Shown: one piece after another, positions 5,719 through 6,382 of the stretch
Numbering within the stretch: position 1 is the first letter of the stretch
Layout: each line of letters starts with the position of its first letter
Source of the DNA: a virus
Taxonomy: Duplodnaviria; Heunggongvirae; Uroviricota; Caudoviricetes
IMG/VR virus record: IMGVR_UViG_2923323785_000002
Span: 1-12,369 of that record
Strand: one strand, 5' to 3'
DNA length: 12,369 nucleotides
Translations under genes and position numbers: made by a program
Notes under the pieces: generated by a model
The model's input: only the letters and a program-made list of their open reading frames with translations
The model's database searches: none
What the model was told of the DNA's origin: nothing

Positions 5719-5904
5719 ATGACCATAGAAGAACGCCTGAACAACATTGAGTTGAATCAAACCCTGCTTGACCAGCGACTTTCAGATCTTGAGCTTAAAG
5801 ATCTTGATGCGCAAATATCAGAAGCAGAAGCCAAGCTCTCCAGCTTAAACCACCGTAAGAAGCAAATCCGCAACAGAATTACTCAGGTACGCGGAAGCTG
5901 TTGA
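5719..5904 (+). CDS. Hypothetical small coiled-coil-like protein (61 aa)
   Basis: ATG with AAGG 7 nt upstream, but only ~25 bp from the divergent start of ORF 5304-5693 and overlapping the 3' end of ORF 5879-6088; could be spurious in AT-rich DNA. Confidence 0.3.
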   Translation: MTIEERLNNIELNQTLLDQRLSDLELKDLDAQISEAEAKLSSLNHRKKQIRNRITQVRGSC

Positions 5905-6088
5905 GGTGGGATGCTAGGTCTCTATCGTTAAAATCAAGGCTGCTAATCATTTCATTGTAAATGGCGTTTTTATCTTCCATTGGCAGCCTTGAGTAAACCA
6001 GACACAGAGCATATTTCAGGGAGTTTAGCTCTTTCTCTAGCTCTTCCTTGCTTGACGTTTTTGACTTAATAAACTGTTTTTTATTCAT
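5879..6088 (-). CDS. Hypothetical protein (69 aa), translationally coupled to mnt
   Basis: Start ATG overlaps the mnt stop (ATGA); AAGGA 6 nt upstream. Confidence 0.5.
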   Translation of the reverse strand: MNKKQFIKSKTSSKEELEKELNSLKYALCLVYSRLPMEDKNAIYNEMISSLDFNDRDLASHLNSFRVPE

Positions 6089-6336
6089 TTTGCATCCTTA
6101 CCATACATGGTTTTCAGCGTCTCAACATCGTGTTCAAGATCTATCAATCGTGATGCTATAGTTGCAAGGTCTAGTGCTTGAATGTGTTTATTTTTTTCTG
6201 TCCACGCTTCAAGTGCCGCGACCATCTCAGCATTTAATGAACGAGAATTAGCCTCAGCCAGTTCAATAAGACGTTCCTTTATCTCTACAGGAAGCCTCAG
6301 ATTCACTTGAGGGTTTTTGTACTTACGATCAGACAT
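6085..6336 (-). CDS. mnt: Mnt-like ribbon-helix-helix repressor (immI)
   Basis: RHH motif (NLRLPVEIKERLIELAEANSRSLNAEMVAALE) resembling P22 Mnt; divergent from the arc-ant operon; AGGA 7 nt upstream of the ATG at 6336 (GTG at 6342 also in frame). Confidence 0.75.
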   Translation of the reverse strand: MSDRKYKNPQVNLRLPVEIKERLIELAEANSRSLNAEMVAALEAWTEKNKHIQALDLATIASRLIDLEHDVETLKTMYGKDAK

Positions 6337-6382
6337 CGGCACATCCTGAATAATTTTTTACCACAGGATATGTAGGTATCTA

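Follow-up and report, generated by a model that had tools for sequence, protein, structure and literature searches.

The secondary immunity (immI) region of phage P22 lies between gene 16, which encodes an ejection protein, and the tailspike gene. It comprises the divergent promoters Pmnt and Pant, the Arc-family repressor gene mnt with a small open reading frame (ORF) directly downstream of it, the genes arc and ant, the antisense RNA sar, and a leftward envelope-protein gene, sieA, whose start is about 25-30 nucleotides (nt) away from that of a divergent plus-strand ORF. The region is highly variable in P22-like phages and has been called the "ant moron" (Villafane et al. 2008, PMC2629481). 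We analyzed its counterpart in the IMG/VR virus record IMGVR_UViG_2923323785_000002, from a phage of the Caudoviricetes, in a stretch of 12,369 nt which is referred to as the window, focusing on the leftward genes mnt, ORF69, ORF129 and ORF68. The sequence-only reading of this DNA proposed that mnt heads a leftward operon running into the cargo, namely the secreted-protein genes ORF129 and ORF68, and that the cargo may be expressed from the mnt promoter in the prophage state.

Two other described systems bear on such a proposal. In phage lambda, the rex genes directly follow the repressor gene and no opposite-strand gene lies between them. If the mnt transcript of the window did read through into the cargo, the arrangement would resemble lambda cI-rexA-rexB, whose accessory genes are expressed in the lysogen from the repressor promoter (PRM), with the difference that the repressor of the window is a secondary one (Mnt) and its co-transcription with the cargo is hypothetical; the same lambda genes are the comparison drawn in the epsilon34 paper for its genes 44 and 45. 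The other parallel is provided by STnc6030 of phage BTP1 and sar of P22, leftward prophage-expressed RNAs that are complementary to a late-strand gene, as any Pmnt read-through in the window would be fully antisense to the late-strand gene orf61. Those two, however, are non-coding RNAs in their own right, their ends mapped and their functions demonstrated, whereas an antisense effect in the window is hypothetical.

Apart from sieA itself, the immI features of P22 named above have counterparts in the window, the two promoters as predicted sites, between the C-terminal part of an ejection protein, which ends at 5026, and the tailspike gene at 7993-9828. Between them, mnt is divergent from arc and ant, both repressor genes match Pfam Arc (E 3e-9 for arc), ant (which has an identical copy in locus L055 of our numbered set of related loci) matches P22_AR_N and P22_AR_C, and sar is found upstream of ant at 6816-6883 on the minus strand (Rfam RF00262, 81.2 bits against a gathering score of 43). 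The surviving mnt, arc, sar, ant and tailspike gene represent the immI region ("ant moron") of a P22-like phage, which is complete since the sar RNA, arc and ant are all present, and the arrangement is a further variant of this rapidly changing region. The differences from P22 are several. The window Mnt is 32% identical to P22 Mnt (BLASTP, E 6e-12, aligned residues 8-80) and has no match at E <= 0.1 to the C-terminal tetramerisation domain (Repressor_Mnt, PF11423), which is matched by other mnt alleles in related loci; ORF69 is unrelated to P22 orf59a, homology between the two being ruled out at E 0.59; the strong terminator annotated after orf59a is missing; a convergent gene overlaps the 3'-end of ORF69; and the cargo encodes a secreted beta-barrel and a YobH-like protein where P22 has SieA.

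Comparison of the related loci gives strong evidence that mnt and ORF69 form a conserved, translationally coupled two-gene unit, and it shows that ORF129-ORF68 is a separately acquired and independently mobile mosaic module. As judged from the DNA itself, expression of the cargo from the Pmnt transcript has a roughly even chance, and we lean slightly towards an account in which partial read-through from Pmnt would reach the cargo, perhaps helped by a promoter like P22 PsieA. The first part of the operon proposed earlier, mnt-ORF69, is therefore upheld by its promoter site and conserved junction, and its run into ORF129-ORF68 is not established. The features of the interval are collected in Table 1.

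Table 1. Positions of the genes and signals from the immI control region to the end of the cargo
Feature	Positions	Strand	Description and evidence
Pant-like promoter	6383-6411	+	predicted, for arc-orf80-ant; TTGACT-17-TACTAT, 13.7 bits, best site on the plus strand
Tandem repeats	6376-6417		two 21-nt repeats and an 18-nt imperfect palindrome; repeat search
Pmnt-like promoter	6365-6393	-	predicted, sigma-70 type; TTGATA-17-TATCCT, 12.8 bits, top site of the strand in consensus and position-weight-matrix scans
mnt	6085-6336	-	83-residue (aa) Arc-family ribbon-helix-helix repressor in the position of P22 mnt; Pfam Arc PF03869, E 3e-10
mnt/ORF69 overlap	6085-6088	-	ATGA, mnt stop and ORF69 start; read from the sequence
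ORF69	5879-6088	-	conserved 69-aa protein; PHROG 16466, E 5e-51
Hairpin H1	5867-5895	-	marginal, over the ORF69 stop; 6-bp stem, 17-nt loop, free energy (dG) -7.8, then UUUGCUUCUU
Hairpin H2	5825-5855	-	interrupted stem of ~12 bp, dG -10.6, then interrupted U-rich tail (C)UUCUGAUAUUU
orf61	5719-5904	+	conserved gene of the late-operon strand, 61 aa, coiled-coil-like; PHROG 7586, E 2e-43
Promoter-like candidate	5716-5744	-	weak; TTGTTC-17-CATATT, 7.7 bits, not above chance for the region size
Linker	5694-5718		25 nt between the ORF129 GTG and the orf61 ATG, TTACCTTAGTGGGAGRTT; holds both Shine-Dalgarno motifs, GGGAGA (ORF129) and AAGG (orf61)
ORF129	5304-5693	-	secreted or periplasmic small beta-barrel protein; PHROG 2651; GTG start, strong Shine-Dalgarno GGGAGA
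ORF68	5087-5293	-	YobH-family small protein with hydrophobic N-terminus; Pfam PF13996, 39.2 bits against a cut-off of 27
Hairpin after ORF68 stop	5075-5088	-	weak; dG -6.0, tail UUAUGGGG; hairpin/U-tract scan

Regarding the mnt-ORF69 unit, the Pmnt-like site is the sole strong promoter-like site on the minus strand, on which all four leftward genes lie, and a transcript from it is predicted to start at about 6358, some 22 nt upstream of the mnt ATG. It stands back-to-back with the Pant-like site, and their two -35 hexamers abut or overlap; in P22 the promoters Pmnt and Pant overlap fully, whereas the hexamers of the window are abutting. The 21-nt repeats fall in this control region and, by analogy with the 21-bp Arc operator of P22, may be operator-like sites, with a role as Mnt/Arc operators that is predicted only. 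The RefSeq name for a protein identical to Mnt of the window is 'Arc family DNA-binding protein'. The mnt start, formerly placed at the GTG at 6342, is better assigned to the ATG at 6336, because the motif AGGA (6347-6344) lies 7 nt from this ATG and only 1 nt from the GTG, and because RefSeq annotates the identical protein as a gene of 252 nt. The overlap of the mnt stop with the ORF69 start was correctly read before: the ORF69 ATG occupies 6088-6086 and the mnt TGA 6087-6085 on the minus strand. A Shine-Dalgarno sequence for ORF69, AAGGA at 6099-6095, is found inside the 3'-end of mnt, 6 nt before the ATG, and the four bases of the overlap are invariant in the 44 related cassettes which we aligned for counts of variable sites and codon positions. 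ORF69 is 97-100% identical in 37 IMG/VR loci as well as in E. coli and phage records, where the gene immediately upstream of it is without exception mnt or, in phages of the Emek type, orf77. E. coli NRG 857C and MP1 are among the strains with this cassette. That mnt and ORF69 are a coupled pair follows from this junction with its Shine-Dalgarno sequence being kept behind several unrelated mnt alleles, and from the best promoter-like site of the strand lying upstream. Pmnt would accordingly be the promoter driving both genes of the pair.

The conserved block to which ORF69 belongs extends from the ATG of orf61 at 5719 to about 6107-6125 and thereby covers the final 7-13 codons of the gene that lies upstream of ORF69. 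It is found behind mnt alleles 100%, 43%, 39% and 38% identical to that of the window, or behind orf77, with the 38-43% identical alleles occurring in many of the loci. ORF69 and orf61 are parts of one mosaic cassette that plugs in behind varied mnt alleles. The second member, orf61, was overlooked in the earlier reading. It converges on ORF69 with a 3' overlap of 26 nt, takes up nearly all of the 185 nt from ORF69 to ORF129, is annotated in phages Emek and Kapi1 and in RefSeq genomes, and accompanies ORF69 in every cassette examined. Of the 23 sites that vary in the part covered by orf61 only, 17 are at the third position of its codons (binomial p = 8e-5), and in the part covered by ORF69 only, the corresponding figure is 12 of 16 (p = 8e-4). 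This excess at the third position in both parts identifies ORF69 and orf61 as real coding genes.

A different view of the same 185 nt is that orf61 is no gene and that the segment serves the leftward operon as a conserved untranslated leader or as a regulatory RNA. Such a view would explain why the homology block starts right at the orf61 ATG and brings no conserved Shine-Dalgarno sequence of its own. It is nevertheless very improbable in the light of the codon-position count on the plus frame, and a Shine-Dalgarno-like motif is supplied to orf61 by every upstream context. Moreover, the fold of the minus-strand RNA is ordinary (z = -1.3) and the spacer has no Rfam match, and on these two grounds we rejected a structured RNA between ORF69 and ORF129. 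As to what the small genes do, scans of the Pfam, NCBIfam and PADLOC protein families returned no function for ORF69, ORF129 or orf61, and the single-sequence AlphaFold model of ORF69 is helical, of low confidence and too poor for a structure search. The label "haemolysin XhlA" was considered for orf61 and rejected, as the 61-aa form scores 13.9 bits with PF10779 against a cut-off of 34.7.

A longer, 92-aa form of orf61 is annotated as "hemolysin XhlA family protein" in RefSeq (L001, 3707-3985; L006, 3142-3420) and is given a CDD XhlA motif in Kapi1 (L003, 2409-2687). It has no XhlA match in our scans, that of NCBIfam being empty as well. The 31 residues by which it is longer lie antisense to the gene of a 60-aa signal-peptide protein, left uncalled by RefSeq, and the 92-aa "XhlA" call looks over-extended.

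On the left of the cassette lies the linker, whose homology breakpoints are at 5702/5703 and 5718/5719. A sequence of about 22 nt from it is common to L004, L008, L010, L012, L014 and L015 and is also present in L017, L021, L024, L029, L035 and L055, and it has a likeness to the "boundary sequences" annotated in phage CUS-3. In 14 loci the linker (TTACCTTAGTGGGAGRTT) precedes four unrelated leftward genes for membrane or secreted proteins, all of which start 26 nt from the orf61 ATG, and in 12 further loci a fifth gene, that of the 60-aa signal-peptide protein, starts 31 nt from it. None of these genes is accompanied by upstream DNA of its own. The linker is a shared mosaic joint, and the cargo of the window sits in a swappable slot which begins 26 nt beyond the orf61 start and for which the linker provides the Shine-Dalgarno sequence. 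At the slot position 26 nt left of the orf61 ATG, L016 and nine more loci of class 1 have a short stretch similar to the beginning of ORF129 (GTGAAACGATTGATTG..., followed by an early stop), which suggests that an ORF129-like gene once filled the slot in loci of this type and then decayed.

The present occupants of the slot, ORF129 and ORF68, lie downstream of mnt-ORF69 on the same strand, as read before. Gene callers mostly give ORF129 a length of 129 aa, with the GTG at 5693 as its start. Its product has a variable, hydrophobic, signal-like N-terminus and a conserved mature part in which Cys20 and Cys129 are invariant. The AlphaFold model is all-beta and predicts a small barrel with high confidence, at a predicted local distance difference test (pLDDT) value of 87, and its matches in the PDB are just weak calycin-like ones (barrels of the lipocalin or fatty-acid-binding-protein type), at E >= 0.009. 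The annotators of phage Emek described the homologue there as similar to Sf6 gene 38. ORF68 starts 10 nt past ORF129 and follows it in every context returned, and the two are probably co-transcribed. The hairpin after the ORF68 stop is unconvincing as a terminator, and leftward transcripts would therefore enter the ejection-protein remnant in antisense.

The independence of this module is evident from its distribution. Its homology to other genomes stops 10 nt upstream of the GTG, and elsewhere it is found after HicAB, P63C, SocA-like, mnt-orf193 and Arc-127 genes, usually behind the 30-nt leader that precedes sieA in P22. As for signals such a moron might carry for itself, the window offers a promoter-like site at chance level and the weak hairpin after ORF68. 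Taken over all neighbourhoods, the linkage of mnt with ORF69 is constant and the adjacency of ORF129 is rare.

The next question is how transcription would get from mnt to the cargo. The sequence-only reading named a terminator between mnt and the downstream ORFs as the finding that would count against it. Between mnt and ORF129 there is no canonical terminator according to a consensus scan and to our own scan for hairpins with U-tracts, and two marginal hairpins, H1 (5895-5867) and H2 (5855-5825), were seen; H1 was left uncalled by the consensus tool and detected in our own scan. The free energy of H2 is -12.6 to -12.9 in most relatives and the hairpin is present in all classes of cassette, an observation on which we rejected the idea that its weakening is tied to arrangements with a gene abutting the cassette. 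Its conservation is uninformative on function, because H2 also encodes part of orf61. The spacer is in addition a poor substrate for Rho at a Rho utilization (rut) site, since G exceeds C in it (26.5% G, 17% C). In the relatives, canonical terminators come after the slot genes, and the hairpins found after mnt and after orf59a in P22 are both among them; in 10 relative loci a terminator stands immediately beyond orf61, and it is never between ORF69 and the orf61 start. Since the slot leaves no space for its own promoter and is not preceded by a canonical terminator, we infer that transcription of the cargo enters from the side of the cassette.

These observations could be taken to speak for a strict single operon, in which Pmnt would be the sole promoter of mnt, ORF69, ORF129 and ORF68 in turn and the cargo would be on only together with Mnt-controlled transcription. 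The four genes do share a strand; the interval from mnt to ORF129 has neither a canonical terminator nor a promoter-like site above chance; the slot genes lack upstream DNA of their own; the terminators annotated after mnt and orf59a in P22 are displaced to the far side of the slot genes in relatives; and in CP035817 an mnt-family gene is followed on the same strand, after a gap of 44 nt, by ORF129-ORF68, which also come after mnt-orf193 on the same strand in three other genomes. We nonetheless regard a strict operon as unlikely, given the two terminator-like hairpins, marginal as they are, and an untranslated spacer of 185 nt that holds a real convergent gene. What is more, P22 PsieA, in an equivalent position, is missed by consensus scans, by which the absence of a promoter proves little, and in LF82 a downstream gene is expressed above mnt.

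Regarding the promoter scans, neither consensus nor matrix scans revealed a promoter-like site above chance on the minus strand from mnt to ORF129. When applied to P22 as a control, the same scans recovered the annotated Pant and Pmnt and missed the annotated PsieA, and the negative result in the window is weak evidence because PsieA is equally invisible. The candidate at 5716-5744 overlaps the orf61 start codon with its -10 hexamer, which is the geometry of the annotated PsieA. It is this site on which a two-unit organization as in P22 would depend: mnt-ORF69 would end at the hairpins after ORF69, and ORF129-ORF68 would be transcribed solely from a weak constitutive PsieA-like promoter, the -35 hexamer of which would lie in orf61 codons 7-9 and the -10 hexamer over the orf61 ATG. 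The precedent is favorable, as the P22 annotation has a terminator and a PsieA distinct from Pmnt, and 30 nt separate the P22 sieA GTG from the start codon (ATG) of a divergent ORF that is missing from the annotation, in a geometry like that of the window, where TTGTTC-17-CATATT occurs at the equivalent place. The putative PsieA was reportedly proposed by Hofer et al. in 1995. Short upstream fragments are enough for sieA function, the expression pattern in LF82 agrees with independent units, and ORF129-ORF68 moves independently and carries the P22 sieA-type leader elsewhere. To set against this, the candidate promoter scores at the level of chance, the hairpins are weak, with a 17-nt loop in one and interrupted U-tracts in both, and the sieA transplants lay co-directionally in the gal operon, where read-through is possible. 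Two separate units are on balance a rather doubtful alternative, and the same applies to the placement of the promoter over the orf61 start.

The account we prefer takes up elements of both: a coupled mnt-ORF69 pair would be transcribed from Pmnt, part of the transcripts would pass the two weak hairpins, run antisense over orf61 and enter the separately acquired cargo, and the weak PsieA-like promoter over the orf61 start may contribute. Several points weigh against it. The convergent gene orf61 and 185 untranslated nt separate ORF69 from ORF129, so that the genes do not follow one another at short gaps. The two hairpins with their U-rich tails might terminate a sizeable fraction of transcripts. 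ORF129-ORF68 is an independent module which is usually located elsewhere; among about 47 loci bearing the cassette, ORF129 abuts it in 3 (the window, the identical L055 and E. coli A28, in which an element of the insertion sequence family IS256 disrupts ORF129), and in the other loci it is 0.9-1.6 kb away or absent. The reference annotation of P22 places a terminator after mnt-orf59a and gives sieA a separate PsieA. Furthermore, sieA of P22 with 85 bp of upstream DNA, and that of HS1 with 106 bp, were functional when moved (PMC10883804).

The transcript evidence in the literature consists of data on the prophage Gally of strain LF82, which has different genes, and of general statements on P22 sieA. 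In RNA-seq of LF82 in LB medium, which is a further point against read-through, mnt of Gally has a value of 13, at background (median 15.6), and the leftward gene past the convergent gene has 70; the gene set of Gally differs from the cassette of the window, and the comparable leftward gene is at about 5 times the mnt level. In macrophages, an induction of 6-40-fold is reported for mnt and its two neighbours as well as for the tailspike gene and the next gene, with most late genes silent (PMC9928086 S1 Table), so that transcription of this part of a P22-like prophage can occur apart from the lytic programme.

A more far-reaching proposal is that the ORF69/orf61 cassette is a plug-in expression platform, on which a Pmnt transcript lacking an efficient stop would silence orf61 by antisense in lysogens and feed the slot; we hold this to be improbable. 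With similar reserve we consider that transcription and a ready Shine-Dalgarno linker could there serve at least five exchanged, unrelated envelope-protein genes, four of them at the same nucleotide, which would be candidate exclusion or conversion factors. If it is Pmnt that drives the cargo, P22-like lysogens would express secreted and envelope proteins in step with their secondary-immunity switch, for which a 40-fold induction in macrophages is reported in LF82 (PMC9928086 S1 Table), and the shared linker would explain how cargo can be swapped without accompanying regulatory DNA. The practical value of the analysis lies in corrections to annotation, namely that orf61 is to be taken as a real gene, the 92-aa "XhlA" as over-extended, and the GTG at 5693 as the start of ORF129.

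The wider setting of the locus is a decayed P22-like (Lederbergvirus-type) prophage at argW. A tRNA-Arg(CCT) gene (11287-11361) adjoins an IntS-type integrase (9968-11161) and yfdC, and a gene for an oligosaccharide transporter of the major facilitator superfamily (MFS) is at the opposite end of the window (1-1248). Bases 1087-9293 are 100% identical to contig NJZP01000003.1 of assembly GCA_002461105.1 (L055), and the whole window occurs in none of the complete E. coli genomes of the collection. In a 589-aa ORF at 3257-5026 on the plus strand, the first ~280 residues come from the N-terminus of a DnaB-type replicative helicase and the last ~300 from the C-terminus of a gene-16-type ejection protein; the fusion marks an in-frame deletion by which nin, lysis and most late genes were lost. 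The prophage end on the MFS side (1249-2480) is also abnormal, with an AlpA-like ORF (1778-1978), a zinc-ribbon ORF (2110-2322) and no c2/cro immunity region 5' of the replication genes, and the element appears to be a prophage remnant without a primary repressor.

Two small observations concern the rightward side of the immI region. The gene arc (6442-6582) and an 80-aa ORF (orf80, 6579-6821) overlap by 4 nt at 6579-6582 on the plus strand, which mirrors the mnt/ORF69 junction. No protein family matches orf80, which is found in some relatives only (L007, L020, L042 and L055). In addition, a terminator-like hairpin called by the consensus scan at 6851-6820 falls within full-length sar and is probably the terminator of sar itself.

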